Assembly: GCA_964421015.1 (NCBI GenBank)
Contig: CAYQUS010000001.1
Coordinates: 22,726-86,725, forward strand
DNA from: an uncultured Planctomycetia bacterium
Lineage (GTDB): Bacteria; Omnitrophota; Gorgyraeia; Tantalellales; Tantalellaceae
Length of the DNA stretch: 64,000 nt
Direction: 5' to 3'
A program made the translations under genes and the position numbers. Positions 76-31,229 of the stretch are shown here, piece by piece. The notes under the pieces are model-generated. The model searched no databases. It was given only the letters and a program-made list of their open reading frames with translations, and was not told the DNA's origin. The number at the start of each line of letters is the position of its first letter. The first letter of the stretch is position 1.

Positions 76-441
76 TCATGCGGCCAGCGCAAGTATGGCG
101 CCTATCAGGATAGCTGATCCTCCAACATAGTACGTGAAACGTGGAGGCTGCTGTTCCATCCAGTCTATTATGCCGGTAATAAAGTTCTTCTTGATAACGA
201 ACGCGAGTATCCCCCCGAAAAGCATTAAGGAACCTATAAGCATCACCACCCATGGCACCCTTGAGGCGCCTGCTGAAAATATGAGGATCAGCCCCGCGAC
301 TCCTTTTATCGAACTGGCTATGTAGATATTGGACCCTTCCTTCGCCCTGTCAAAAATCTTTCTCAGGACTTCGGGACGAAAAACCAGAAGACAGCCGTAG
401 ATAATGACGATAATAGCCAGAAGATTTACCAATAGAACCAT
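76..441 (-). CDS. small polytopic inner-membrane protein, function unknown
   Basis: 121-aa ORF with 3-4 hydrophobic helices (LLVNLLAIIVIIYGCLLVF ..., GLILIFSAGASRVPWVVMLIGSLMLFGGILAFVI ...). No catalytic motif recognised. Confidence 0.45.
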   Translation of the reverse strand: MVLLVNLLAIIVIIYGCLLVFRPEVLRKIFDRAKEGSNIYIASSIKGVAGLILIFSAGASRVPWVVMLIGSLMLFGGILAFVIKKNFITGIIDWMEQQPPRFTYYVGGSAILIGAILALAA

Positions 442-483
442 TTTTACCTCCTTAGTTTAAAGGTTTCACGGACCTTTTACCGT

Positions 484-1689
484 TTATTTTTTCATAAGCT
501 CCGAAAAGACTTCAAGGACTTTGTCGACATCTGTTCGCGCGGCTTCTTCTTGGGTAGCCGTTTTTTCCGGATTTGTTGCCCTGGATATCATTTCACCTAT
601 TTTATCCACAGCCATGTTCCTTATGGCCCTGGATACGTTGGGCCCCGGATAGAACCTGGGATTCTCCATGGGGCCTTTTATCTTGAAATCGAACACTGTC
701 TCGCCCGGCGAAAGTTCAAGGTACCTTATTATCTCGGTCATATTGGCATCCCAGAACACGGAAGACGATCCCCCCTGCTTCTCTTTGAATTCAAGCCCGC
801 GGAAAGTAAGAGAGTTGTCGGATCCTATATTCCCCGCGTTAAGATCGAAAACCACCACACCGGAAACTTTCCCCCGTGTTATGTCTATGGGAGAGTATCT
901 GTCGTAATAAGGCTTAAAGAAGGTAATATCCACGTTCTGGGGCTCGATCCTGTTGGACATGGTGATCTTGGAAGCCGCAAGATCCGCGGACACTCTCCAA
1001 TTAAGCCTCTGGGAATCATCGCCGTTAACGAACCCGTGCCCTTCCGTCTCGAGATACGTAACTTCGTAATCATCGAGAAGAAACCTGAAAGCCGACTCCA
1101 TGCGTTCAAGGGTCACGAAGAAAGGCCCGGGCTGGATCATGGCGTCGCGGAAGATTATTTTTCCTCCCGTCATGCTTCCGGGAAGATGACCCCGTAAAAC
1201 AACCGCTTCCGACACACTCTTTACCATACCCTCCCCGCCGGCAGCGGCGCCCTCACTCGAAGAATTACGTATCTCGAACTTCGGGGAGGCTGACATCGAT
1301 CCTCCGGGCGGAGCCATCTCTATCTCGTCGAAATTGGCTCTTCCGTTGGAAAGCCTCTCCATGGACACCACGGGGTCTTTTAGCTCCAGTCCCGTAACCT
1401 CAACCCCGCTAAGAACCGTGCGTCCCCTCATGCGGAAACTTATCGATAAAAACGGAACGTCCGCGAAATAAAGGTCCTGGAAACCTGCCGGATTCCTGAC
1501 TGCCAGGTTGTAGAGCTCCAGTTTACCCCCGGAAAGGTCCAATACCACTTTTTCCACGACCACATTCCCGGGTATCACCTTTTTGAAAAATATGTTAGCC
1601 GCGAAGCGGATTATATCCCCCCTGAGGTACCACACCCCGAAACCGGCGGCAAAGAACAGGCATAATAAGAATATCAGCGTTTTCTTCAT
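484..1689 (-). CDS. membrane-anchored periplasmic protein (AsmA/DUF748-like?), function unknown
   Basis: N-terminal signal-anchor MKKTLIFLLCLFFAAGFGVWYL, then a roughly 380-aa soluble part with no recognised motif. The track start at 1710 was moved to the ATG at 1689, which follows GGAGGG and lies just after the AmrS stop. Confidence 0.45.
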   Translation of the reverse strand: MKKTLIFLLCLFFAAGFGVWYLRGDIIRFAANIFFKKVIPGNVVVEKVVLDLSGGKLELYNLAVRNPAGFQDLYFADVPFLSISFRMRGRTVLSGVEVTGLELKDPVVSMERLSNGRANFDEIEMAPPGGSMSASPKFEIRNSSSEGAAAGGEGMVKSVSEAVVLRGHLPGSMTGGKIIFRDAMIQPGPFFVTLERMESAFRFLLDDYEVTYLETEGHGFVNGDDSQRLNWRVSADLAASKITMSNRIEPQNVDITFFKPYYDRYSPIDITRGKVSGVVVFDLNAGNIGSDNSLTFRGLEFKEKQGGSSSVFWDANMTEIIRYLELSPGETVFDFKIKGPMENPRFYPGPNVSRAIRNMAVDKIGEMISRATNPEKTATQEEAARTDVDKVLEVFSELMKK

Positions 1690-1706
1690 AAACCCTCCGT
1701 TTCCTC

Positions 1707-2720
1707 TCATATCCAGACTCCGGCGACCTTACTGCCGCAGGATAGACAGCGCCCCCTATCGAAAGAATCATCTTCTATGTCCAAGCAATAACCGTTCCTT
1801 CTAATCAAAAGCTTTCCGCAACCGGGACACAGTGTATCCGCAGGCATATCCGCGTTACCCGGATATACATGTTTTAGCCCCTCTTCTTTCCCGATCTCAA
1901 CAACTTCGGCTATAAGGCCCTTATCCGTAGGAGGGACTTTCATAGCCTTGTAGTCGGGATGAAAACGGCTGATGTGCCACGGCATTTCCCGGTCGAGTCC
2001 GGCAAGGAACCGCGCCATTGAGCGAAGCTCATCTAAAGAGTCATTAAGCCCCGGGATGACCAGTGTCGTCACCTCCACCCAGATGCCTGAGACTTTCATC
2101 TTTTCTATCGACCTTAATACCGGGGAAAGCGATGCGCCGCATACTTTTCTGTATTTTCCGTCGTCGAAAAACTTAAGATCGATATTGGCCGCGTCTATAT
2201 ATCCGGACATGACATCGATCGCGGACATTGTCATGTATCCGTTAGTCACAAAAATGTTCTTAAGCCCCTTAATGTGAGCCTCCCTGGCGGTTTCATAGGC
2301 GTATTCAAAAAAAACCGTAGGCTCGGTATATGTGTAGGAAACGCTGGCGCAGTCCGACAAAACCGCCTGTCTCACCGCTTCTTCCGGCTTAAGTTCATAT
2401 CCATCCGAATCTCCCTTTGAGGCGGATAAAGTCGATATGCGCCAGTTCTGACAGAATGAACAGGTAAAATTGCATCCCATGGCCGCCATGGAAAATGTCA
2501 TGGTGCCGGGTAAAAAGTGATAAAGAGGTTTCTTTTCCACAGGGTCTACGTGACTGGCCACGACCTCACCGAAAGCGAAAGTAACAAGCTCTCCCTTCAC
2601 GCAGCGGCGCATTCCGCACAGGCCAAACTTACCTTCGGCAATAAGGCACCGATGCGAACACAACCCGCACCTGACCGTTCCCCCTTCTTCTTTTTCCCAA
2701 AGCATAGCCTGCCGTATCAT
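1707..2720 (-). CDS. amrS: AmmeMemoRadiSam system radical SAM enzyme (AmrS-like)
   Basis: Radical-SAM CxxxCxxC cluster (GCNFTCSFCQNW) in a PFL-activase-like fold. It has the N-terminal Cys motif CGLCSHRC...CGMRR and a C-terminal Cys-rich tail (CPGCG...C..C..C) typical of AmrS. Confidence 0.75.
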   Translation of the reverse strand: MIRQAMLWEKEEGGTVRCGLCSHRCLIAEGKFGLCGMRRCVKGELVTFAFGEVVASHVDPVEKKPLYHFLPGTMTFSMAAMGCNFTCSFCQNWRISTLSASKGDSDGYELKPEEAVRQAVLSDCASVSYTYTEPTVFFEYAYETAREAHIKGLKNIFVTNGYMTMSAIDVMSGYIDAANIDLKFFDDGKYRKVCGASLSPVLRSIEKMKVSGIWVEVTTLVIPGLNDSLDELRSMARFLAGLDREMPWHISRFHPDYKAMKVPPTDKGLIAEVVEIGKEEGLKHVYPGNADMPADTLCPGCGKLLIRRNGYCLDIEDDSFDRGRCLSCGSKVAGVWI

Positions 2721-5343: not shown

Positions 5344-6687
5344 CTAACGTCCGACGGCCGCTATAACACGGGCCGACCTCTCGAATATATCTTCCAACTC
5401 CTCTTTTTTAGAGCAAAGCGGCAGAAAAAAGTATATCACATCTCCCAGGGGCCGGAGAATAAGATTCTCAGATAGCCCCATTCTGTAAACCTCAAGGCCT
5501 ATTCTTCTTTCGGGCGGAAAGCCATTCTTCGAAGATTTATCGGCCACCAGCTCTATCGCCCCCACGGCTCCGATATTCCTGGTATCCCCCACAAATGGCA
5601 GAGCCCTGGCGACATCGAGAAAAGAATCCAGCATAACATTTATCATCCCGGTCCGGGCCAGCGTGGACTCTTCCTTGAAAAGTTCAAGGCTCTTTAGCGC
5701 TGCCGCGCAGGCGATGGGATTGGCGGTATAGGTATGCCCGTGATAAAACGTCTTCCCCTCACTGTAGTCCCCGTAAAAAGAATTGAAAATTTCTTCTGTC
5801 ACCAGGGTAGCCCCCAGGGGAAGATACCCCGAAGTGATGCCCTTGGATACGCACATAATATCGGGCGACACTCCGGCGTGTTCACAGGCGAACATCTTCC
5901 CTGTTCGCCCGAAACCTGTGGCGACCTCATCGGCGATAAGAAGCACTCCATATTTTTTTGTAAGATCACGTATCCCGCGGAGATACTCGGATGGATAAAT
6001 TATCATCCCCCCGGCCCCCATGAGCATGGGTTCCAGAATGAAGGCAGCTATCTTACCGGCGTTCTTTTTCAGGATTTTCTCCGCGGCCGAAAGACACTCC
6101 ATTGAGCACCTTCCTTTCGAGGCTCCACAGGGGCATCTGTAACAGTAAGGGGATGGAGCTCGAAACGATTCAAACATCATCCCCCCGAATGCCCGAGTAA
6201 AAACGCTTTTGCCGCTTACGCTCATAGCTCCGGAAGTATCGCCGTGGTACCCGCGGTCAAGGCAAATAAAACTGGACTTGTCGGAAAGTTTCTTGGAATC
6301 CCAGTATTGCGCCGACATTTTCAGGGCCACCTCTACTGCCGTTGAACCGTTATCGGAATAAAAAACTTTCGAGAGCCCTTCAGGCGCGATGTCCAGAAGT
6401 TTTTCAGACAATTCTACAGCGGGACGGTGCGTGAACCCGGCAAAAAGAACATGCTCAAGAAGCCCGGACTGCTTTTTAATAGCTTCGCGTATCGCGGGGT
6501 GTCCGTGCCCGTGCACGTTACACCACCAGCTCGAGATAGTGTCGTAATAGAACTTCCCGCTGTAATCAAAAAGCTTTATACCCTCTGCCCTCTCTATGGG
6601 GATCGGGGGCAGATCGACACAGTCCTTCATCTGAGTATACGGATGCCAGTTAACGTCAAGGTCCCTTTTTACAAGTTCATCGTACAT
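5344..6687 (-). CDS. bioA: adenosylmethionine-8-amino-7-oxononanoate aminotransferase
   Basis: Class-III aminotransferase (YHGDT, EPMLMGAGGM, DEVATGFGRTGKMFACEH, PLP-Lys in VSKG) sitting in the bio operon. It carries a Cys-rich insert, CYRCPCG..C..C. Confidence 0.8.
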   Translation of the reverse strand: MYDELVKRDLDVNWHPYTQMKDCVDLPPIPIERAEGIKLFDYSGKFYYDTISSWWCNVHGHGHPAIREAIKKQSGLLEHVLFAGFTHRPAVELSEKLLDIAPEGLSKVFYSDNGSTAVEVALKMSAQYWDSKKLSDKSSFICLDRGYHGDTSGAMSVSGKSVFTRAFGGMMFESFRAPSPYCYRCPCGASKGRCSMECLSAAEKILKKNAGKIAAFILEPMLMGAGGMIIYPSEYLRGIRDLTKKYGVLLIADEVATGFGRTGKMFACEHAGVSPDIMCVSKGITSGYLPLGATLVTEEIFNSFYGDYSEGKTFYHGHTYTANPIACAAALKSLELFKEESTLARTGMINVMLDSFLDVARALPFVGDTRNIGAVGAIELVADKSSKNGFPPERRIGLEVYRMGLSENLILRPLGDVIYFFLPLCSKKEELEDIFERSARVIAAVGR

Positions 6688-6698
6688 GATCTCCAGCC

Positions 6699-7406
6699 TT
6701 ATTTTTTAAGCGACATATGATCCAATATCCGCTCCGCGATCCCGGAAAAATTAACGTAACGATCTTCGTCGCTGCCTGCATGGCCTATCTCTCCCATATC
6801 GGGCACGCCGGAAAACCCGGATATCACTCTTCTATTATCCACAAGAGCCTCCTCATTTTCACCCGATATATGACGGTTAAAAACAAGGCCTATAACATTA
6901 ATCCCCCTGGACTTAACGGCCTCGACCGTGAGAAGAGCATGGTTTATGGCTCCCACCCTGTTGCCTACCACCAGGAGCATGTCCATCTCGAGGTCTCTGA
7001 CTACGTCCACCATGAGCTCCCGAGAATTTATAGGCACCAAAACTCCGCCCGTCCCTTCTACCACGACCATATCAAAGTTCCCGGCCAAAGCGGAAAAACT
7101 TTTTTTTATTTTTCCCGACGAGATATTTTTATTTTCACAAGCTGCGGCGAGATGTGGAGAAACGGGAGACCTGAAAGAGTACGGCACAACAAGATCTGAG
7201 TACTGCCCGTAAAAAGATCCTCTCTTACCCTGGGTCTTTATGTGTGAGTGGATATCATCGGCGCGGCCATCCGAACCCGTCTGGACCCATTTCTGGGTAA
7301 TAACGGAAAACCCTTTTTCAGACAGATACCTCGAGAGAAGCCCGGTAACCACTGTTTTTCCCACGCCGGTGTCCGTTCCGGCTATAAAGATACCGGGGGT
7401 CCTCAA
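6699..7406 (-). CDS. bioD: dethiobiotin synthetase
   Basis: N-terminal P-loop GTDTGVGKT and BioD-like length, in the bio operon. Confidence 0.85.
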   Translation of the reverse strand: MRTPGIFIAGTDTGVGKTVVTGLLSRYLSEKGFSVITQKWVQTGSDGRADDIHSHIKTQGKRGSFYGQYSDLVVPYSFRSPVSPHLAAACENKNISSGKIKKSFSALAGNFDMVVVEGTGGVLVPINSRELMVDVVRDLEMDMLLVVGNRVGAINHALLTVEAVKSRGINVIGLVFNRHISGENEEALVDNRRVISGFSGVPDMGEIGHAGSDEDRYVNFSGIAERILDHMSLKK

Positions 7407-8185
7407 GAGGGCGCCTCCGCCTTGCAGAAATAAACGTTATGAGTGGCTACTATCCCGCCGAACTTTTCCATATAAGTCCTTTCCATGTCACGGAGGATAT
7501 ATTTTCCCAGAAAAACGTCCTTACCCAGTCCCTCTCCCCTAGATCCGCTTTTTTTTATGTTCTGCAAAAATTCCCAGATAGAAAAAAAGTTTACGTTGAA
7601 ATTCTCTTCGTGTATCTCGCACTTGGTGAAATACCTGTTCATAGCAGAAATGATCTCGTTTTTTCCGGCAAAGCGGCTGGAACTTAACCACTGTCTCGGC
7701 CCGAAATGCGCCCCCAGGACCTCTTTAAACTCCCTGAAAGTCCCGGGGCCGTATATGGAAAAGCATATCGTTCCGCCCTTGACAAGATGAGCCAGAAAAC
7801 CGGAAAAAGCCGAGTCAAGACCGGAAAACCAGTGAAAACTGGCGTTCGAAGTTATAAGATCGAATTTTCCGCGCATGTCGATCTTCTCCGCGTCTGACAC
7901 CTCAAAAACGACGTTTCGCCCTTTGAGTTTCCCGCCGGCTACCTCCACCATATCCCTTGAAATATCGACAGCAGTTATGCCAGCGTCGGGGAACTTCTCC
8001 GAAAGAAGCCCGGTATACCCGCCCGTGCCGCAACCTATCTCAAGTATTTTCTGGAAATAATCAAGGTCGAGAAGGTCTACCAGCCTTTCCGCGCATCGCT
8101 TCTGAACGGCCGCATGATCGTCGTACGTAACGGCGCTTTTGGAAAAGTTTTCCCTGATCATGACCTTATCGATATCTGCTGACAC
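7403..8185 (-). CDS. bioC: malonyl-ACP O-methyltransferase (SAM-dependent MTase)
   Basis: SAM-binding motif ILEIGCGTGGYT. It sits between bioF and bioD with 4-nt overlaps on both sides. Confidence 0.7.
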   Translation of the reverse strand: MSADIDKVMIRENFSKSAVTYDDHAAVQKRCAERLVDLLDLDYFQKILEIGCGTGGYTGLLSEKFPDAGITAVDISRDMVEVAGGKLKGRNVVFEVSDAEKIDMRGKFDLITSNASFHWFSGLDSAFSGFLAHLVKGGTICFSIYGPGTFREFKEVLGAHFGPRQWLSSSRFAGKNEIISAMNRYFTKCEIHEENFNVNFFSIWEFLQNIKKSGSRGEGLGKDVFLGKYILRDMERTYMEKFGGIVATHNVYFCKAEAPS

Positions 8186-9340
8186 CTAAGTCTCCTTTTT
8201 TAAACAATAACTCAGGTCTTCCGTGAAATCATCCAGGACTTTAATATCGTGATGCATGGTTACCGATAGCCTCAGCCTGGCCCCTTTCGGAGGTACCGTG
8301 GGAGGCCTTACCGCCAGAACCCACCACCCTCTTTTTTTAAGCCCGTCCGCCAGAGAAAGCACTCTTGAGTCATCACCCACCACTACCGGAACTATCTGGG
8401 ATCTCCCGGACAGACCTTTCAAACCTAAGTTCTTCCTAAAATAGGCGGCCTTCTCAAGAAGCTCCCTTCTCCGCCACTCTTCGAGGGAAGCGACATCTAT
8501 GGCCTTCAAACAACCCGCGACCACCGGTACCGGCAGGGACGTTGAGTATATAAAGCTTCTGCACCTGTTTATAAGATATTCCTTGATATCATTATCAACC
8601 GCGACGTAGGCCCCGAAAACTCCCAGAGCTTTACTGAAAGTACCCATGATAACGTCTATGTCTTCCGAGAGACCCGTCTCCTCTGAAAGCCCCGCCCCTG
8701 ATGATCCGAAAATTCCCGTGGCATGAGCCTCGTCGATCATCAGCAAACAGCCGTAAGATCTTTTGAGGGCCGTTATTTCTTTCAAGGGAGCCTCATCCCC
8801 GTCCATACTGAAAAGGGATTCTGTCACGATAAGAGCTTTCCTGAAGTTCCTCCTGTTTTTACGTAAAAGTTCTTCCAGGTTTTCCGTGTCATTGTGCCTG
8901 AACCGGAAGGATACCGCCCCTGAAAGCTTTATGCCGTCCACTATGCTCGCATGGCTCAGCTTGTCCGAAAAAACACAGTCGCCCTTGCCAACAAGCGAAC
9001 TTATAACACCCGTGTTGGCCTGGTATCCGGTATTGAATATAAGAGCTGCGGGCTTGTTTTTGAACCTTGCCACTTTTTCTTCCAACAGATGATGTAGCCG
9101 GGTGCTTCCCGTCATCAGGCGCGAGGAAGCCGTGCCGACGTTAGTTAACAGTCCGTCGCGTACGGCGGCAAGGATCTCGGGATGGGAAGAAAGCCCGAGA
9201 TAATCGTTGGAGGAAAAATTTACGTATTCTTTACCTCCGTGCAGGATCCTCCCGCCCCCGGAAAAGGATATCTCCGAGAGTTCTCGTTTCCTTGAGACCG
9301 CCATGGAACTCAGATCGAAACAGCCTGCTGGCTTTTCCAT
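8186..9340 (-). CDS. bioF: 8-amino-7-oxononanoate synthase
   Basis: Class-II PLP aminotransferase fold, with PLP-Lys in TFSKALG and DEAHATG. Confidence 0.8.
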   Translation of the reverse strand: MEKPAGCFDLSSMAVSRKRELSEISFSGGGRILHGGKEYVNFSSNDYLGLSSHPEILAAVRDGLLTNVGTASSRLMTGSTRLHHLLEEKVARFKNKPAALIFNTGYQANTGVISSLVGKGDCVFSDKLSHASIVDGIKLSGAVSFRFRHNDTENLEELLRKNRRNFRKALIVTESLFSMDGDEAPLKEITALKRSYGCLLMIDEAHATGIFGSSGAGLSEETGLSEDIDVIMGTFSKALGVFGAYVAVDNDIKEYLINRCRSFIYSTSLPVPVVAGCLKAIDVASLEEWRRRELLEKAAYFRKNLGLKGLSGRSQIVPVVVGDDSRVLSLADGLKKRGWWVLAVRPPTVPPKGARLRLSVTMHHDIKVLDDFTEDLSYCLKKET

Positions 9341-10242
9341 CTCTCCAGCGCCTCCTCAACCAGAAGTTTATCGTTATTGGGGTCCGATCCTGGAACGGTC
9401 AAATATCCTCCCACCATCATCCCGTCGGCTCCCGCGTAAAATATCATCCTTTGGGAATCTTTTAGAACGTTTGCTCTTCCCGCCGCCACAGTTATGCACG
9501 GTTTTTCAAGTATTATCCTGAAAAGCGCTATCGCCCGTAAAGCGTCGGAGCTCTCCAGAGAAGGGAGCTCTCCCATGGGAGTCCCAGGTATGGGCATGAG
9601 GAAATTTAAGGGCACGGAATCTATCTCGAGGCTCCTCAGCTCAAACGCCATGTCTATCCTGTCTTCCCATGTCTCTCCCAAACCCAGGATACCTCCCGAA
9701 CATATTTCTATTCCTTCCCTTTTAACGGCTGTGATCGTCCTCACCCTGTCCTCATAGGTATGAGTGCTGACCACCCTGGAATAGAATTTTCTGGAAGTCT
9801 CGACGTTATGATGGTAGCGCTTGAGCCCTGCCGACTTGAGGCACCGAAGGTCTTCCGTATCTATCGCCCCAAGGGACGCGCAGGGCAAAACCCCTTCTTC
9901 TGGGAACTTTTCGATAACCGAGGCGATCGCAGTTATTTCCGTACGGGTGGGCGAATTGCCGCTTGTGACTATCCCGACTCTCCTGGCGCCTTGAGCCTTT
10001 CCCTCTCGGACTTTGGAAATAATATCACCCTGAGAAATAAGCGGATAAGTTTTTATCCCGGTTCCGTGGCATGCAGCTTGGGCGCAGAAACCGCAATCTT
10101 CGCTGCAAAGGCCGGACTTAGCGTTAACTATCGCGCAAAGCGATATACTACCTTTACGGTTTTTGGCTCTGACCTCGTCCGCAAGGGCCATTACCTCACA
10201 TAAAGGCATTTTTACCAGATCAAGAGCCTCTTCTTTTTTCAT
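9310..10242 (-). CDS. bioB: biotin synthase
   Basis: Radical-SAM CxxxCxxC motif (CSEDCGFC) with BioB-like length and context. Confidence 0.9.
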   Translation of the reverse strand: MKKEEALDLVKMPLCEVMALADEVRAKNRKGSISLCAIVNAKSGLCSEDCGFCAQAACHGTGIKTYPLISQGDIISKVREGKAQGARRVGIVTSGNSPTRTEITAIASVIEKFPEEGVLPCASLGAIDTEDLRCLKSAGLKRYHHNVETSRKFYSRVVSTHTYEDRVRTITAVKREGIEICSGGILGLGETWEDRIDMAFELRSLEIDSVPLNFLMPIPGTPMGELPSLESSDALRAIALFRIILEKPCITVAAGRANVLKDSQRMIFYAGADGMMVGGYLTVPGSDPNNDKLLVEEALERWKSQQAVSI

Positions 10243-19917: not shown

Positions 19918-20355
19918 TTATTGAAAAGTTATGAGATCTATCCCGGAAACCGGGTCGATTTTTCTTTCCAGGGAAAGACCTTTTATCTCGGAAACAACAG
20001 CCTCCAGGGTTATAAATGTTTTGCTCCCCTTGCGCAGGCAGCCCGTAAGCGAAGAGTTCCCGCTCCCGAAAGAAGCATGGAGATGGATCCTTGGTTTACC
20101 GTCTTTCCTGGTTATCGTCCCGGATCCCACGACTTCCCTGCCGTCATTGAATGAAACAACGTTGGGATCCGGAGGTAAAGCGACTTTTTTCGGACCGGAA
20201 ACTATCGTTCCTTCCTCTATCGCTCCCAGGACGCTTACGGTAGCGACGGATATTTTCTCTTTATCGGCGATATCGCACAAAAGAGACACTATGTCGTCCC
20301 CGTTGTCAAAACGTATAAAGAAGACCCTTCCAGTGTTTCCTGAAGAATACTGCAT
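19918..20355 (-). CDS. PPC (DUF296) domain protein
   Basis: Matches the PPC-domain pattern (GRVFFIRF...G....SGP......V.LHASF). The start was set to the ATG at 20355, 1 nt after the pfk stop; the longer track ORF overlaps pfk. Confidence 0.65.
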   Translation of the reverse strand: MQYSSGNTGRVFFIRFDNGDDIVSLLCDIADKEKISVATVSVLGAIEEGTIVSGPKKVALPPDPNVVSFNDGREVVGSGTITRKDGKPRIHLHASFGSGNSSLTGCLRKGSKTFITLEAVVSEIKGLSLERKIDPVSGIDLITFQ

Positions 20356-20356
20356 A

Positions 20357-21571
20357 TCACATGTACCTTTCCGGCGAACCCTTAGTTTCCACATACACAG
20401 GCTCGTACTTCTCGGGATTCCTCCCGAAACAAGTGCCGAGCTGTTCAAAAAGGGCCACCTGACTGAGATCGACATGTCTTTGAACGATCGCTCTGTCCGC
20501 CGGCATGTATCTGACTTCTTTCCCTTTCACCTCGGACACGGTCACTCCGGTTATGCCTTTCACAAGAAGTTTAACGGCGGCGGCTCCGGCTTCCTTGCCG
20601 AAATTAACGTCATAAGCGCTGGCCCTTCCGCATCTGACAAGATGTCCGGGAGTGACAGACCTTACCTCCGGTATTTCATAAAGCTTCTCAACATACATAT
20701 GTGTATCTTTCATGAAATCTTTCACCATAGTGTCGGCCTTAAGACGTTTAGTAAGTTCCTGGCATACGTACTTAGCCGCTCCGGCCAGCTTCTTGTGACC
20801 AAAAGCGTCAACACCGGCGCTTTCGTCGACTATTTCCTTCCCGGATGCGTCCTTGAGCCCCTCGGCCACGACAATCAGGTATGTCCCCTCAAAAACATCG
20901 CTCAGGATAAAACGCCGTGTAAGCTTCTGTTTAACATGCGCGTAAAGCACATCAAAATCAACAGGTATCTCAGGAATAAGTATCGCATCCACATCGGCAG
21001 CTATGCCTCCTCGGAACGCGGTATGCCCGGCATATCTTCCGAAAACCTCCATGACTATAACCCTGTTATGCGTCCTTCCAGTGGTCTTAAGTTCATCGGC
21101 ATATACGGATATCTTATTTATAGTGGAATCGGCTCCTACAGAATATGTCTGCAGATCAAGATCCATCGTCTTGGGAACATGTACGCACGCGATATCATTC
21201 TTATGAAGATCTACCATTACACTGCCGGAATCGTCTCCGCCGCTTATCACAAGAGCGTCTATACCGAATTTTGTCAGCCCCTTTTTTATGCGCTCATACC
21301 TTGCGGAATCGTCTATCTTCTTTATCTTAACACGCGAGTGCCCGACGGCTGAACCTGCCATAGTGGCGTTCACAAGGTCTATTCGGTCTGCCGAAAGCTC
21401 AGTAAGACGCTCAAAGTCCACTAGATTGTAAAGACCCGCGTATCCGTTAGGAATAGCGTAGCATTTTATCCCCATGCTCGACGCCATGGCCGCAGCTCCC
21501 TTAACGACAGCGTTCAACCCTCCGCAGTCTCCACCGCTTGTAAGTACAGCTATTTTTTTCACTTTATCCAT
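20357..21571 (-). CDS. pfk: 6-phosphofructokinase, probably pyrophosphate-dependent
   Basis: PFK N-terminus KIAVLTSGGDCGGLNAVV. GGDDS replaces the GGDGS of ATP-PFKs, and PKTMDLD has Lys where ATP-PFKs have Gly (PGTIDND); both are PPi-PFK signatures. Confidence 0.8.
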   Translation of the reverse strand: MDKVKKIAVLTSGGDCGGLNAVVKGAAAMASSMGIKCYAIPNGYAGLYNLVDFERLTELSADRIDLVNATMAGSAVGHSRVKIKKIDDSARYERIKKGLTKFGIDALVISGGDDSGSVMVDLHKNDIACVHVPKTMDLDLQTYSVGADSTINKISVYADELKTTGRTHNRVIVMEVFGRYAGHTAFRGGIAADVDAILIPEIPVDFDVLYAHVKQKLTRRFILSDVFEGTYLIVVAEGLKDASGKEIVDESAGVDAFGHKKLAGAAKYVCQELTKRLKADTMVKDFMKDTHMYVEKLYEIPEVRSVTPGHLVRCGRASAYDVNFGKEAGAAAVKLLVKGITGVTVSEVKGKEVRYMPADRAIVQRHVDLSQVALFEQLGTCFGRNPEKYEPVYVETKGSPERYM

Positions 21572-21670: not shown

Positions 21671-22165
21671 CTATATTCCCAGTGAAGATTGAAAAAATGA
21701 CCTGTCCTTTTGAAGTTTTATGCGGAAAGTCCTTCCGCTTACTATGATCTTCTTAAGATCTTTATCCCCATCCCTCCAATCACCGTAACTTAAGAAAAAC
21801 TCGAAATCCTCTCCCGCCTCCTTTACCGAGCTTATCCGGTAAGGCTTGTATTCCATGAACCGGAAGTCCATTTTGGCCTCGTCTAACGTATAGCCCGTTT
21901 CATTGGGATCATCGAGGAGAGAAAACATTTTTTCATAATCCTCGTTTTTCCAGGCCTCCAGAAAATCCGTTACGACAGCCCTGCCTTCAGGACACACCTC
22001 GGAATCTATCTCCTGACGACCTGTAAAAGCCGAGAACGGAACACCTACCATTCGCGGCTGCTCTCCTCTGGGGTCCTCAAAGTTCTGACCGACAGATAGC
22101 CCCTCCGTGATAAGTAAGAGAGGAAATACCGCTAACACCGCCATATTGAAACGGGCACCCTGCAC
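21671..22165 (-). CDS. exported hypothetical protein
   Basis: Signal-peptide-like N-terminus (MAVLAVFPLLLITEGLSVG) and an acidic mature part with no recognised motif. The start overlaps the dtd stop by 1 nt. Confidence 0.4.
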   Translation of the reverse strand: MQGARFNMAVLAVFPLLLITEGLSVGQNFEDPRGEQPRMVGVPFSAFTGRQEIDSEVCPEGRAVVTDFLEAWKNEDYEKMFSLLDDPNETGYTLDEAKMDFRFMEYKPYRISSVKEAGEDFEFFLSYGDWRDGDKDLKKIIVSGRTFRIKLQKDRSFFQSSLGI

Positions 22166-28781: not shown

Positions 28782-29528
28782 TTACATAGAAAAGTTTCCG
28801 GCTTCGTACCCCATAACAGAAACCGCAAAAAGACCTGCTGTATCGCTTTTCAAGACTGTCTTTCCGAAATTTACAAGTAAAAAACCGTTTTCCCTGGCAA
28901 AAAGAGCCTCATTTTCCGAAAAATCACCCTCCGGGCCTATCAGGGAAATGCACTTTTTGGGGAAAGGATGCGGTATCACGGACCTTAGCGGCACGGTTTT
29001 TCCGGATAAACACGCCAGTACCTTCAGATCATATTCTGCCGCGCCTGAAACCAGGTCTTTGAACATCAATATTTCCCCTATCTCGGGAACACACACCCTT
29101 GAACATTGTTTCGAGGCTTCTACGGATATCTTTCTCCACCTTTCTGTCATTTTCACCGCGGCCCGCGGATCCGGCCGGACTATCGTCCGCTCGCTTATGA
29201 GCGGAATTATCCTTGAAACTCCAAGCTCCGTGGCCTTTTCAACGATGTAGTCCATTTTGTTTTTTTTAGGGATAGCCTGCGCAAGAGTTATTGAGGGGTT
29301 TTCAAGGACAGGGGCCTTGCATGAACTGGTTATTTCCACTGTCAGATTTTTACCCCGATCATCTATCCTCGAGATTATTCCCGAGTATTCAGTGCCCTGC
29401 CCGTCGAACATCTGGATCTCATCTCCGAGTGAAAGCCTCAAAACTTCGCAAATGTGCCTGGCCTCACCGCCTGTTATCCGAGCCTTATTCCCCGCGATAT
29501 CTTCCGGTCTCAAAAAAAATCTTCCCAT
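28782..29528 (-). CDS. rsmE: 16S rRNA (uracil1498-N3)-methyltransferase
   Basis: N-terminal PUA-like region (RFFL...I.G.EARH) plus a SPOUT C-terminal domain, about 245 aa. Confidence 0.8.
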   Translation of the reverse strand: MGRFFLRPEDIAGNKARITGGEARHICEVLRLSLGDEIQMFDGQGTEYSGIISRIDDRGKNLTVEITSSCKAPVLENPSITLAQAIPKKNKMDYIVEKATELGVSRIIPLISERTIVRPDPRAAVKMTERWRKISVEASKQCSRVCVPEIGEILMFKDLVSGAAEYDLKVLACLSGKTVPLRSVIPHPFPKKCISLIGPEGDFSENEALFARENGFLLVNFGKTVLKSDTAGLFAVSVMGYEAGNFSM

Positions 29529-29545: not shown

Positions 29546-31054
29546 TTAATTGTTTTCATTCATCTCCTTCTCACCGAAAACCTCGGCCGTGTACACATAG
29601 ACCTCGGCTTCACCCGTACGCCACGCGCTTTCGCTTATCCCCGCCTTATCGCGGCACAAACTGTTCATGAACTCCTCTTTAGACCATCCCGTTTCGACAG
29701 CCACCTGAGGCAGATAAACCCCGCTTCTTCTCCCCATAGAAACCATTACCCCATGCTTTCCCATCTCAATCTCAGAGGGATCAAAAACTCTCCTCATCGG
29801 TGACAAAGCGGATATCTCTATGTCTATTTCCGAAAGCTCCTTTTCGGTGACCGGCATAAAGCGGCTGTCCTCAAAAGCCGCTGCCAGGGCCATTTCTATG
29901 ACCGTTCGGTAAAAGGGCATCTCCGAGCTCATTCGGCCTATACACCCCCTAAGGGAGCCATTCCTGTGAAGAGTAACAAATCCCCCGAGGGGAGCAAGAA
30001 GCGCCGCCTCTTTTACTTTAGGGTTTATCATCTCTCCGCTACTGAGATATTCCGTTATAGCAGACCGGGCAATGCCCAGAAGTTTTTTCTTTTCTTCCTT
30101 GGTAAACATGCCTTTCTCCCTTTTTACTATCTCCGCCTTCAGCGTTTTTCCTGAAGTCCTGACAAAAGCGGCGCTCAGGTATCCCACAACCCTGCTTTTG
30201 TCTCCCGAGGAATCGCCTGAAGTAGAGTATTTTAAGACCTGAAAATCGTCTGCCCCTGCCATTATGGAAGCCTTCATGACCGCGTAAACCGAAGCCCGTC
30301 CGCACATTATTTCGTGACCGCTGGCAACGCTGTAACGGTAAAATTCCTCCGGATCCATCTGCGAAAGTTTGTCGATCGTCAGTTTATCCTTTTTTACGGC
30401 CTGTTCCTCGGGAAGATAGTGTGACATATCAGCGCTGGCCACCATAACAACGTTCTTCCCGGACAGCAGGACCTTATAAAGCGCTTCAGCAAGCACCTTG
30501 GCCGTGTCCTCATTCTGGTCGCCTATGGCCACAAGCGCCAGCTTGGCTTCGGGAAGTGCCGCCTGTGCCAGGGGTATCAGCATCTCTATCGAGTTCTCTC
30601 CCTCAAAAGCCTCGGGGACGTAACGCAAGGACGGATCATAAGAAAGAAGAGCGCTTGTCACATCGGCGTCTATAAGGGCTCTCCCCAGGGGAGTGACAAA
30701 AGCTTCCGCGTCAAAAACGCTTATGGTCCCGGGTAGATGTTTCTTGTGGGTAAACCCCACGATTATTATCGTTTCCGGCCGTTCCGGTTGCAGCGCCTTG
30801 AACGAATGGGCCGCGACCGATCCGGAATAGTCTAAACCCGCATGCGGGGATATAACGGAGACAACCTTATGCATTTTCCGCGGGAGCCTGGCGTTTTTTA
30901 GATACTCTGAAAGTTCCCTGTTAAGGGCCGCGGGAGAGGATCTATACCACGTTCCGGCCAGATCGGAATATTTTTCCGCGGCCCCTGCCTGGGAGCCGGC
31001 CGGACAAACAAACCACAGGACAAGGCACACAGAAGGCAGGATAAAATTCCTCAT
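29546..31054 (-). CDS. fused AmmeMemoRadiSam system protein B (Memo) - protein A (AMMECR1), with N-terminal signal-peptide-like segment
   Basis: N-terminal half carries the Memo signature SPHAGLDYSG. C-terminal half carries the AMMECR1 signature LRGCIGRM...AAFEDSRF. The first 23 residues, MRNFILPSVCLVLWFVCPAGSQA, look like a Sec signal peptide. Confidence 0.75.
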   Translation of the reverse strand: MRNFILPSVCLVLWFVCPAGSQAGAAEKYSDLAGTWYRSSPAALNRELSEYLKNARLPRKMHKVVSVISPHAGLDYSGSVAAHSFKALQPERPETIIIVGFTHKKHLPGTISVFDAEAFVTPLGRALIDADVTSALLSYDPSLRYVPEAFEGENSIEMLIPLAQAALPEAKLALVAIGDQNEDTAKVLAEALYKVLLSGKNVVMVASADMSHYLPEEQAVKKDKLTIDKLSQMDPEEFYRYSVASGHEIMCGRASVYAVMKASIMAGADDFQVLKYSTSGDSSGDKSRVVGYLSAAFVRTSGKTLKAEIVKREKGMFTKEEKKKLLGIARSAITEYLSSGEMINPKVKEAALLAPLGGFVTLHRNGSLRGCIGRMSSEMPFYRTVIEMALAAAFEDSRFMPVTEKELSEIDIEISALSPMRRVFDPSEIEMGKHGVMVSMGRRSGVYLPQVAVETGWSKEEFMNSLCRDKAGISESAWRTGEAEVYVYTAEVFGEKEMNENN

Positions 31055-31099: not shown

Positions 31100-31175
31100 T
31101 GGTGGAGCAGATGGGATTCGAACCCACGACCCCCACGTTGCGAACGTGATGCTCTTCCAGCTGAGCTACTGCCCC
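31100..31175 (-). tRNA. tRNA-Ala (anticodon CGC)
   Basis: Minus strand GGGGCAGUAGCUCAGCUGGAAGAGCAUCACGUUCGCAACGUGGGGGUCGUGGGUUCGAAUCCCAUCUGCUCCACCA. The G3:U70 Ala identity pair is present; CCA encoded. Confidence 0.85.
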
Positions 31176-31229
31176 ACTTGAAACTGAAAAGTAATTATAG
31201 CACATAAAGCTCCGCCGTCAATTCGGCTC

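Follow-up and report, generated by a model that had tools for sequence, protein, structure and literature searches.

The window, the 64-kb stretch of DNA analysed here, encodes a 502-amino-acid protein that is an AmmeMemoRadiSam B-A fusion, in which a Memo domain (protein B) and an AMMECR1 domain (protein A) both score far above the curated cut-offs (Table 1). Comparison with its relatives makes export of this fusion likely, and the reading that we favour, with moderate confidence, is a Sec-exported periplasmic enzyme whose radical-SAM step either takes place in the cytoplasm or is uncoupled from it. Memo, AMMECR1 and the radical SAM enzyme AmrS are among the most widely conserved protein sets of still unknown chemistry, and two of them have human relatives linked to disease; the place at which they act limits their possible substrates.

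Table 1. Coordinates of the features of the window that are discussed in the text
Feature	Position	Strand	Basis or remark
Memo-AMMECR1 fusion pre-protein (AmmeMemoRadiSam B-A), whole ORF	29546..31054	-	502 aa; Pfam, NCBIfam, AF2 model, Foldseek
Predicted signal peptide, residues 1 to about 23-27	30974..31054	-	comparative and rule-based evidence
Memo domain (protein B), residues 28-295	30170..30973	-	profile match, alignment, structure comparison
Inter-domain linker, variable, residues 296-327	30074..30169	-	length differs, gapped in the orthologue alignment
AMMECR1 domain (protein A), residues 328-493, LRGCIG with C371	29576..30073	-	profile match, alignment, structure comparison
rsmE (16S rRNA methyltransferase), 17 nt downstream of the fusion	28782..29528	-	conserved neighbour
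tRNA-Ala(CGC), 45 nt upstream of the fusion ORF, same strand	31100..31175	-	tRNA call
Promoter-like site TTGACG-16-TATAAT (11/12, TG extension), upstream of the tRNA and fusion	31194..31221	-	consensus match only
AmrS, signal-less type (T1), 337 aa	1707..2720	-	TIGR04337, translation
DUF748-like (AsmA-like) protein, N-terminal membrane anchor	484..1710	-	overlaps the amrS stop (ATGA)
Small membrane protein, 121 aa, after the DUF748 gene	76..441	-	position kept in relatives

The Memo-AMMECR1 fusion and its locus

The preliminary description had recognised Memo and AMMECR1 in a single ORF from two short motifs, both of which are present, and profile searches bear out the assignment. The N-terminal half is Memo (PF01875, residues 32-295, E = 1.4e-55, 188.8 bits against a cut-off of 27; TIGR04336 of NCBIfam, 224 bits against 26) and the C-terminal half is AMMECR1 (PF01871, residues 328-493, E = 1.1e-53, 181.6 bits against 25; TIGR04335 of NCBIfam, 170.5 bits against 99). 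The Memo domain opens with an invariant lysine (K28) and an ADLAGxWY-type motif, and residues H71, H103, D209, H212 and C251 align with the metal ligands of MEMO1, which we take to be His49, His81, Asp189, His192 and Cys244 in human numbering; all five are unchanged in an alignment of 33 orthologues. The AMMECR1 motif residues L368, R369, G370, C371 and G373 are invariant in the orthologue alignment. The AF2 model of the fusion (mean pLDDT 90.8, falling below 50 at residues 305-314 of the linker) matched MEMO1 (7l5c/3bcz) and AMMECR1-like structures (1zq7/1vaj) in Foldseek, and tblastn detected no second copy of Memo or AMMECR1 in the window. The fusion as such is already known, being named in JGI and NCBI annotation, and it argues, as had been proposed, for a physical association of proteins A and B.

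The gene order at the locus is exbB-exbD-tonB ... tRNA-Ala, fusion, rsmE. The locus is ancient, and the juxtaposition of rsmE and the fusion marks it phylum-wide. The tRNA-Ala(CGC) and the fusion probably belong to one transcription unit; the gene calls of the homologues P0002 and P0003 run through the tRNA-Ala. The presence in the window of a BamD-like TPR protein and of ExbB, ExbD and TonB-like genes implies a diderm envelope.

A predicted Sec signal conserved by kind

The translated ORF begins MRNFILPSVCLVLWFVCPAGSQAGAAEK, in which an n-region M-R with the basic residue R2 is followed by the h-region FILPSVCLVLWFVC, by P18 and by the c-region PAGSQAGAA. The rule used here asks for a basic n-region, for at least about 10-15 uncharged, hydrophobic residues in the h-region and for small residues at positions -3 and -1; by this rule the segment reads as a Sec signal with a signal peptidase I site: the n-region is basic, the h-region uncharged and the residues at -3/-1 small. 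Cleavage is predicted between A23 and K28, with SQA, AGA or GAA as candidate sites; since a glutamate immediately precedes K28, the cut would fall 1-4 residues earlier than in most orthologues. The same rule flagged 6/60 ORFs of the window, with no housekeeping cytoplasmic enzyme among them. In the AF2 model the N-terminus forms a helix that stands away from the fold at a lower pLDDT, with residues 19-24 below 50 and the c-region disordered. Two other kinds of signal were rejected for the window fusion, namely a lipoprotein signal ([LVI][ASTVI][GAS]C at the end of the h-region), as C10 and C17 lack G/A/S at -1, and a Tat signal ([ST]RRxFLK ahead of the h-region), as there is no twin-arginine motif.

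A segment of the same architecture (basic residues, about 18 uncharged residues and an AxA-type end) stands directly before the invariant Memo-opening lysine in 115/120 orthologues from Candidatus Omnitrophota, the remaining five being truncated gene calls in which the c-region is still present. It is conserved by kind, not by sequence. Across 106 orthologues the N-terminal extension has a median length of 23 aa and an uncharged run with a median of 18 residues; K or R is found within the first 8 residues in 98%, Ala at -3 in 67% and at -1 in 59%, and Lys at +1 is invariant. The segment is also present in nearly all of 81 genome loci, and the spread is phylum-wide, with 222 matching stretches in species-representative genomes. 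Among 147 more distant representatives of the fusion, 116 (about 80%) have hydrophobic or lipoprotein-type N-termini, and lipobox-like motifs occur in 35 of these 147 and in 11 of the 120 orthologues. Judged from these comparisons, the signal is real, as the preliminary description had supposed from the window protein, and the signal-bearing fusion is the standard form throughout Candidatus Omnitrophota and is not narrowly lineage-specific.

It is highly improbable that the protein stays in the cytoplasm, its hydrophobic N-terminus being a mis-called start or a cytoplasm-facing anchor. Such a location would suit the classically cytoplasmic Memo, AMMECR1 and AmrS, the cytoplasmic or nuclear residence of Memo and AMMECR1 in characterised eukaryotes, and the lack of a signal on the AmrS of the window. 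Lysine at +1, often followed by K or R at +2, is likewise not ideal for Sec export. An anchor of this orientation may also have a counterpart in the family: in the triple fusion P0384 positive charges follow the N-terminal helix, which suggests an N-out/C-in, cytoplasm-facing anchor, so that within the family a hydrophobic N-terminus need not always mean export. However, a mis-called start is rejected, since an in-frame stop lies 2 codons 5' of M1 and, M1 apart, the frame offers just two canonical start codons, a GTG at codon 9 that still lies within the hydrophobic core and an ATG at codon 61 (Met61) whose use would remove invariant Memo residues; the signal therefore cannot be bypassed. Further, the extension of the 115 orthologues has a basic n-region that points to an N-in/C-out orientation, and the partner AmrS of sister lineages bear predicted Tat signals (see below).

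An uncleaved signal-anchor, in which the segment is retained and holds the enzyme at the inner membrane on its periplasmic side, would agree with the length and strong hydrophobicity of the h-regions, with the Glu at -1 to the conserved lysine in the window protein, and with a membrane theme that is general in the family. We nevertheless regard it as distinctly unlikely in view of the strong enrichment of Ala-x-Ala exactly before the first conserved Memo residue, the helix-breaking Pro or Gly in the c-regions of orthologues, and the lipoboxes of the 35 distant representatives, which are those of a processed signal.

The AmrS of the window and its operon

As had been noted before, the window contains a single AmrS, 27 kb from the fusion and in a separate operon (TIGR04337, 311.9 bits against a cut-off of 220; cluster motif CX3CX2C at C83/C87/C90, with further N- and C-terminal Cys clusters); no second AmrS was found in the 64 kb by tblastn. 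The 27 kb between them hold only housekeeping genes (biotin synthesis, ilvD, trxB-like, rpoD, dnaG). The amrS gene overlaps rmuC upstream and a DUF748-like ORF downstream by 4 nt each, the latter being 408 aa long if read from the ATG in the overlap and 401 aa if read from the Met that follows. The preliminary description had seen here a coupling to an unrelated membrane-anchored protein; the coupling and the membrane anchor stand, but the protein is not unrelated, for DUF748 adjoins T1-type amrS in 3/3 contexts examined and, going by these contexts, is its conserved operon partner.

No export signal was found in T1-type AmrS (0/120 sequences), and the Tat motif is also absent from the AmrS of the window; with AmrS lacking a signal, the three proteins cannot meet after export. 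The signal-less AmrS form a clade apart from all signal-bearing AmrS, and the window AmrS scores 312 bits with TIGR04337 against 362-387 bits for the signal-bearing ones. In one MAG a locus of the window type occurs together with a complete signal-bearing cluster (L030, L048), and a second, exported AmrS could be encoded elsewhere in the source genome, outside the window.

The separate clade, the lower score, the MAG with both arrangements and a conserved amrS neighbour that is DUF748 and not Memo or AMMECR1 all agree with an alternative in which the signal-less AmrS has ceased to work for the exported fusion and has its partners in the rmuC-amrS-DUF748 operon or among other cytoplasmic proteins. 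The exported B-A protein would then do without a radical-SAM step or rely on a second, exported AmrS encoded outside the window; MEMO1 and AMMECR1 are indeed kept in eukaryotes without any AmrS. Such an uncoupling is nevertheless unlikely in our estimate: the AmrS of the window passes the curated model, window-type AmrS and fusion occur on the same contig in at least 5 cases as judged by equal-sized contigs (1 confirmed by record name), and no other Memo or AMMECR1 is seen in the 64 kb.

Linked, signal-bearing AmrS in sister lineages

A survey of relatives finds the fusion phylum-wide and places amrS next to it in 19/81 related loci. In other Omnitrophota amrS stands beside the fusion at the same exbBD...rsmE locus or in a paralogous cluster, and the fusion in L060, L064, L068 and L077 has the same chromosomal neighbourhood as in the window. 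The fusion-adjacent AmrS of these sister lineages bears apparent Tat (SRRxF) or Sec-like signals. The motif [ST]RRxF is present in 86/120 sister-type AmrS, with RK/KR variants in 7 more, and 3/5 of the N-termini tested pass the cut-off of TIGR01409 (NCBIfam); the Pfam TAT_signal model did not reach threshold on AmrS N-termini. A polytopic spermidine-synthase-like (SpeE-like) membrane protein is encoded in 18/19 of the amrS-linked loci and also in L084, and a UbiA gene lies beside a signal-less fusion. The triple fusion of L064 (AmrS plus B-A, 856 aa) has a single N-terminal signal, the internal signal being gone. Because the sister AmrS carry Tat motifs and this triple fusion keeps one N-terminal signal, the signals are probably functional. 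One supposed same-contig pair, a window-type fusion (P0016) and a Tat-type AmrS (P0439), was rejected, since both lie on 15,243-bp contigs by coincidence.

These signals challenge the premise, adopted in the preliminary description, that the system is cytoplasmic. Its further proposal of a lineage-specific variant does not hold for the signal-bearing fusion, given its spread through the phylum and among the distant representatives. The split locus is a derived state of one large subclade, and the clade of the window has lost the linked amrS and the SpeE-like gene from the fusion locus.

To our knowledge no Tat-exported radical SAM enzyme has been described, and none was found in the literature searched. 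That literature also yielded no prokaryotic function for AMMECR1 and no exported or Tat-linked AmmeMemoRadiSam system; Burroughs et al. 2019, outside its scope, may note signal peptides. It is conceivable, if somewhat unlikely, that the whole system is at root envelope-based in a large share of bacteria and that the window represents a split-compartment derivative. The three activities, that of a Tat-exported [4Fe-4S] radical SAM enzyme among them, would then all be extracytoplasmic in many lineages, next to a spermidine-synthase-like membrane partner, while in the window a cytoplasmic AmrS would prepare the substrate or the pre-protein, or the exported enzyme would be independent of AmrS.

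Proposed mode of action

We propose that a Sec signal of about 23-27 aa carries the fusion across the inner membrane and that signal peptidase I cuts just ahead of the invariant Memo-opening lysine. The product would be a periplasmic two-domain enzyme, released or membrane-proximal, in which a flexible linker connects the Memo metal site (His/His/Asp/His/Cys) with the AMMECR1 domain and its conserved cysteine. This enzyme might act on the periplasmic side, on a substrate that belongs to the envelope or is embedded in the membrane and is probably an isoprenoid or a lipid, with the radical-SAM step of the window lineage occurring in the cytoplasm, either before the substrate crosses the membrane or on the pre-protein before export. 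The conserved signal of the fusion, the Tat signals of the sister AmrS and the single-signal triple fusions point to the envelope or membrane, not to nucleic acids or cytosolic metabolites. A lipid or membrane substrate is suggested by the gene neighbourhoods (SpeE-like protein, UbiA, DUF748) together with a prediction reportedly published by Burroughs et al. 2019 (J Biol Chem). We advance tentatively the idea that the substrate is of a lipid type and is acted on in turn on the two sides of the membrane, as a possibility that falls somewhat short of probable.

Alternatively, AmrS may modify the B-A protein itself, in the manner of glycyl-radical activases or anaerobic sulfatase-maturating enzymes. 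In the window lineage it would act in the cytoplasm, on pre-protein that is still unfolded and awaits Sec export, and in the sister lineages a Tat-exported AmrS, preloaded with clusters and one SAM, would act in the periplasm. Consistent with this, the named enzymes to which AmrS is most closely related (YjjW activase, PFL-AE, NrdG) are radical SAM enzymes that activate proteins; 1:1 operons and in-cis triple fusions suit a stoichiometric single-use activase, and a maturase would explain how the radical-SAM step can be placed in either compartment. With no obvious supply of SAM in the periplasm, a radical SAM enzyme there might also be expected to favour a single turnover. On the other hand, we know of no modified residue in solved Memo or AMMECR1-like structures, and the eukaryotic proteins that persist without AmrS speak against a required maturation, so that we do not think this role a likely one.

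The two natural designs, one with all components exported and the other with only B-A exported and AmrS cytoplasmic, offer a ready-made experiment, and the contrast between them can separate a role of AmrS in protein maturation from one in a small-molecule or lipid pathway. If the AmrS with Tat signals is truly exported, it would be a new case for radical SAM enzymology; we know of no precedent for periplasmic radical SAM chemistry. A periplasmic AmrS would also constrain the use of SAM, either to a single-use activase or to SAM as a regenerated cofactor.

Comparison with known systems

Canonical AmmeMemoRadiSam systems are three adjacent signal-less genes, with products assumed to be cytoplasmic. 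The window passes all three of the corresponding models (TIGR04335 for A, TIGR04336 for B and TIGR04337 for the radical SAM enzyme) and keeps the catalytic and ligand residues as well as the joint action of A and B, but it has A and B on one polypeptide with a predicted cleavable export signal, its amrS lies 27 kb off instead of adjoining A and B, and its components are predicted not to share one compartment. The signal-bearing clusters found elsewhere in the Omnitrophota and in at least one further lineage (L037, L060, L064, L084) have, like the window, an orthologous B-A fusion with a signal, whereas an adjacent signal-bearing AmrS, the SpeE-like membrane protein and triple fusions are found in those clusters and not in the window.

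Human MEMO1 (3BCZ, 7KQ8, 7L5C), AMMECR1 with archaeal PH0010 (1VAJ), and MM0484 (1ZQ7) have the same folds as the window fusion, with Foldseek E-values of 1e-18 to 1e-21 and TM-scores on the target of 0.73-0.81 against the MEMO1 and AMMECR1-like structures at an identity of only 25-37%. The MEMO1-type His/His/Asp/His/Cys set and the LRGCIG motif are also shared; however, the human and archaeal proteins are separate chains without signals, while the window has one signal-bearing chain. The division between compartments is like that of the anaerobic sulfatase-maturating enzyme, a cytoplasmic radical SAM enzyme paired with Sec-exported sulfatases, though this is a functional analogy only, with no homology beyond the radical SAM core. 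Finally, Tat-exported iron-sulfur proteins, such as the small subunits of hydrogenases, have the [ST]RRxF motif in common with the sister AmrS but not with the AmrS of the window.

Domain architecture and N-terminal signal of the Memo-AMMECR1 fusion

Profile searches bear out the preliminary description of a single-polypeptide fusion: Pfam models place a Memo domain at residues 32-295 (E 1.4e-55) and an AMMECR1 domain at residues 328-493 (E 1.1e-53), and the NCBIfam models for AmmeMemoRadiSam proteins B (TIGR04336, 224 bits) and A (TIGR04335, 170.5 bits) both match well over their cut-offs. A PDB sequence search recovered MEMO1 and the AMMECR1-like proteins PH0010, MM0484 and ST0229, and an AlphaFold2 model of the fusion (33 orthologues as input; mean pLDDT 90.8) recovered MEMO1 (E about 1e-20) and 1ZQ7/1VAJ (E about 1e-18) in Foldseek. 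Residues H71, H103, D209, H212 and C251 are the aligned counterparts of the MEMO1 metal ligands; these, along with the cysteine of the LRGCIG motif (C371), are invariant across the ortholog alignment. These comparisons establish the domain identities and show that the catalytic residues are intact. No second copy of Memo, AMMECR1 or AmrS was found in the 64-kb window.

A mis-called start was rejected, given that an in-frame stop lies two codons ahead of M1 and canonical in-frame starts other than M1 are limited to the GTG at codon 9, within the hydrophobic core, and Met61, use of which would remove the invariant Memo residues K28, A33, G34, W36 and Y37. Of the 120 closest homologues, 115 have a comparable N-terminal extension; the remaining five are incomplete gene calls in which the c-region is nevertheless retained. 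In 106 fusion sequences anchored on the invariant Lys opening the Memo domain, the extension has a median length of 23 aa and a median uncharged run of 18 residues, with K/R within the first 8 residues in 98%, Ala at -3 in 67% and Ala at -1 in 59%. The segment is thus conserved in character rather than in sequence, a hallmark of signal peptides. As a specificity control, the same simple rule flagged six of 60 window ORFs, namely envelope/membrane proteins and one uncharacterised 164-aa ORF, and none of the housekeeping enzymes among them. The fusion model shows a helix detached from the fold at residues 1-16 and disorder at residues 19-24; neither a lipobox nor a twin-arginine motif is present in the N-terminus of the window fusion. 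Sequence comparison thus upholds the proposed Sec-type signal and shows the signal-like N-terminus to be obligatory and conserved. It is likely that the fusion would be exported via Sec and cleaved by SPase I to give a periplasmic Memo-AMMECR1 enzyme. As a Glu directly precedes K28, the cut probably falls after A23, A25 or A26, the rival possibility being an uncleaved N-terminal anchor. Set against the conserved extension, a cytoplasmic fusion is very improbable.

Distribution of the fusion

The closest 120 homologues (44-62% identical) all have the same fusion, and the named ones are nearly all from Candidatus Omnitrophota MAGs. A genome scan with one genome per species detected 222 stretches matching the fusion; the best 80 are all from Omnitrophota MAGs, including Ca. 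Omnitrophus magneticus, and nearly all of these best loci carry the signal. Many Omnitrophota-type loci (L002, L005-L007 and others) are labelled 'uncultured Planctomycetia bacterium'; given that their gene content and synteny are those of Omnitrophota, these labels look like placeholders. When representatives of 50%-identity clusters were searched exhaustively, a further 150 fusions (34-45% identical) were listed: hydrophobic N-termini occur in 116 of the 147 full-length ones (35 of these with lipobox-like motifs), and 12 lack any extension. The signal-bearing fusion had been taken for a lineage-specific variant; its prevalence among near and distant homologues alike overturns this view, and the predicted exported form accounts for most of the fusions and is no local peculiarity. 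Fusions of this kind are common and known, with names already in JGI and NCBI annotation.

Two further loci have distinctive contexts. In a Zixibacteria MAG (L086) a signal-less fusion is directly followed by a UbiA-family prenyltransferase, a neighbour suggestive of a prenylated or isoprenoid substrate. In L085 a fusion with a lipoprotein signal is followed by a 309-aa radical SAM protein, separate from AmrS in the tree, and a stand-alone signal-less Memo, placing predicted exported and cytoplasmic Memo copies side by side.

Gene neighborhoods and the signal-bearing AmrS of relatives

The usual gene order in relatives, with which the window locus agrees, is exbB-exbD-tonB-like, two small ORFs, (tRNA-Ala), fusion, rsmE, (miaB-like), cvpA, NIF3-like, dnaG, rpoD. 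The tRNA-Ala(CGC) gene has a strong, near-consensus promoter-like site (TTGACG-16-TATAAT with TG; consensus match only), and the database gene calls of two close homologues, P0002 and P0003, run too far and read through this tRNA gene. Of 81 loci, 19 have a full-length AmrS orthologue (35-41% identity) at most 4.4 kb from the fusion; five of the 19 carry it immediately upstream in the same direction, the others about 4 kb downstream on the opposite strand. Four upstream-amrS loci (L060, L064, L068 and L077) are flanked, like the window's fusion, by exbBD and rsmE; for the fifth, L055, the contig is short and shows only rsmE. These common flanks make the fusions of the four loci positional orthologues of the window's gene, and a linked, signal-bearing amrS has been lost from the window's fusion locus. 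Also linked, in 18 of the 19 loci, is a SpeE-like polytopic membrane protein (about 750-780 aa; NF037959, fused MFS/spermidine synthase) whose spermidine-synthase domain is central; no such protein was found in the window.

An extension of 29-73 aa that includes a hydrophobic core is present on every neighbouring AmrS with a readable N-terminus. For one of these AmrS proteins the 120 closest homologues (P0391-P0510) were compared: 86 have a strict [ST]RRxF followed by an h-region and AxA site and seven have RK/KR variants, the rest being mostly incomplete gene calls; examples of the twin-arginine motifs are ISRRDFCK... and NRREFLK.... The NCBIfam Tat-signal model TIGR01409 scored over cut-off for three of five AmrS N-termini tested, and the signal-bearing AmrS proteins reach 362-387 bits on TIGR04337, above the window AmrS. 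The neighbouring AmrS of sister lineages is thus predicted to be targeted for export; a Tat-exported radical SAM enzyme, if true, would be unusual. L084, from another lineage, encodes a lipoprotein-type fusion, DUF362, Tat-AmrS and the SpeE-like protein in order. AmrS-Memo-AMMECR1 triple fusions occur in L064 and P0384, the latter over cut-off on all three NCBIfam models. In each, the only hydrophobic segment is at the N-terminus; in L064 the AmrS signal is kept and that of Memo-AMMECR1 is gone, as would be expected of functional signals and of three domains located in one compartment. The N-terminal helix of P0384, unlike that of L064, has positive charges on its C-terminal side.

Coordinates of the features discussed (window positions unless a relative's locus is named)
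Feature	Location	Strand	Remarks
Memo-AMMECR1 fusion ORF	29546-31054	-	502 aa, N-terminus MRNFILPSVCLVLWFVCPAGSQAGAAEK
tRNA-Ala(CGC) and promoter-like site	31100-31221	-	tRNA 45 nt upstream of fusion ORF
amrS	1707-2720	-	
amrS-DUF748-121-aa membrane protein	76-2720	-	overlapping or tightly spaced genes
amrS-DUF748-121-aa membrane protein	L082:6001-8598		overlapping or tightly spaced genes
amrS-DUF748-121-aa membrane protein	L083:6001-8712		overlapping or tightly spaced genes
SpeE-like polytopic protein	L037:11365-13665	-	linked to signal-bearing AmrS/fusion
SpeE-like polytopic protein	L060:11382-13625	-	linked to signal-bearing AmrS/fusion
SpeE-like polytopic protein	L084:9892-12234	-	non-Omnitrophota lineage
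Tat-signal AmrS	L037:13693-14859	-	twin-arginine, h-region, AxA
Tat-signal AmrS	L084:8726-9895	+	twin-arginine, h-region, AxA
DUF362 protein	L084:7754-8665		between lipoprotein-type fusion and Tat-signal AmrS
AmrS-Memo-AMMECR1 triple fusion	L064:8849-11416	+	856 aa stop-to-stop
AmrS-Memo-AMMECR1 triple fusion	P0384		838 aa
Fusion-UbiA	L086:5001-7601		
Fusion-radical SAM-Memo	L085:6001-9338		
Biotin-synthesis-type run	5344-10242	-	
473-aa ORF	19931-21352	+	minority strand
164-aa ORF	21671-22165	-	signal-peptide-like

The AmrS of the window

The window's only AmrS, situated away from the fusion as first described, is a bona fide member of its family (TIGR04337, 311.9 bits against a cut-off of 220). 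Its gene has a 4-nt overlap at either end, with rmuC upstream and with the gene for a DUF748-like, membrane-anchored protein downstream. It belongs to a clade apart from the signal-bearing AmrS in the tree, with at least 120 orthologues (53-62% identity, all about 337 aa), none having a hydrophobic or Tat N-terminus. The order amrS-DUF748 (AsmA-like)-small membrane protein recurs in all three contexts examined and looks like a conserved operon. In several relatives, window-type amrS and fusion genes share a contig but are never adjacent. That the window AmrS and the predicted exported fusion are functionally uncoupled seems unlikely. In the MAG JADHYN01 (isolate BS750m-G80), a window-type locus with fusion-rsmE but without amrS occurs together with a complete signal-bearing cluster (loci L030 and L048), reflecting either paralogous systems able to coexist or a mixed bin. 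Given both locus types in one MAG, a second, exported AmrS may be encoded elsewhere in the window's genome.

Part of the 27 kb separating amrS from the fusion is occupied by a biotin-synthesis-type run, recognized by Pfam domains alone: radical SAM with BATS (BioB-like), class I/II aminotransferase (BioF-like), methyltransferase (BioC-like), AAA_26 (BioD-like) and class III aminotransferase (BioA-like). The otherwise minus-strand window has lower coding density and mixed strands at about 15.9-21.6 kb; the 473-aa and 164-aa ORFs have no Pfam match.

Functional implications and comparison with the canonical system

We tentatively favour a reading in which AmrS and the fusion would act one after the other on a substrate in the membrane or envelope, probably of a lipid or isoprenoid kind, in light of the conserved membrane/lipid neighbours: the SpeE-like and DUF748/AsmA-like proteins, and UbiA beside a signal-less fusion. 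Memo contexts were reportedly tied to isoprenoid modification by Burroughs et al. in 2019. That AmrS instead serves as a maturase of the fusion itself appears doubtful.

The literature searched contained no description of the exported fusion form or of the sister-lineage Tat-signal AmrS. Family models make the window proteins members of A, B and S of canonical AmmeMemoRadiSam; they differ from that system in lacking A/B/S adjacency and, by prediction, the shared cytoplasmic location. Of the components with predicted export signals, the window itself shows the fusion alone, but it gives a testable view of where AmmeMemoRadiSam works.
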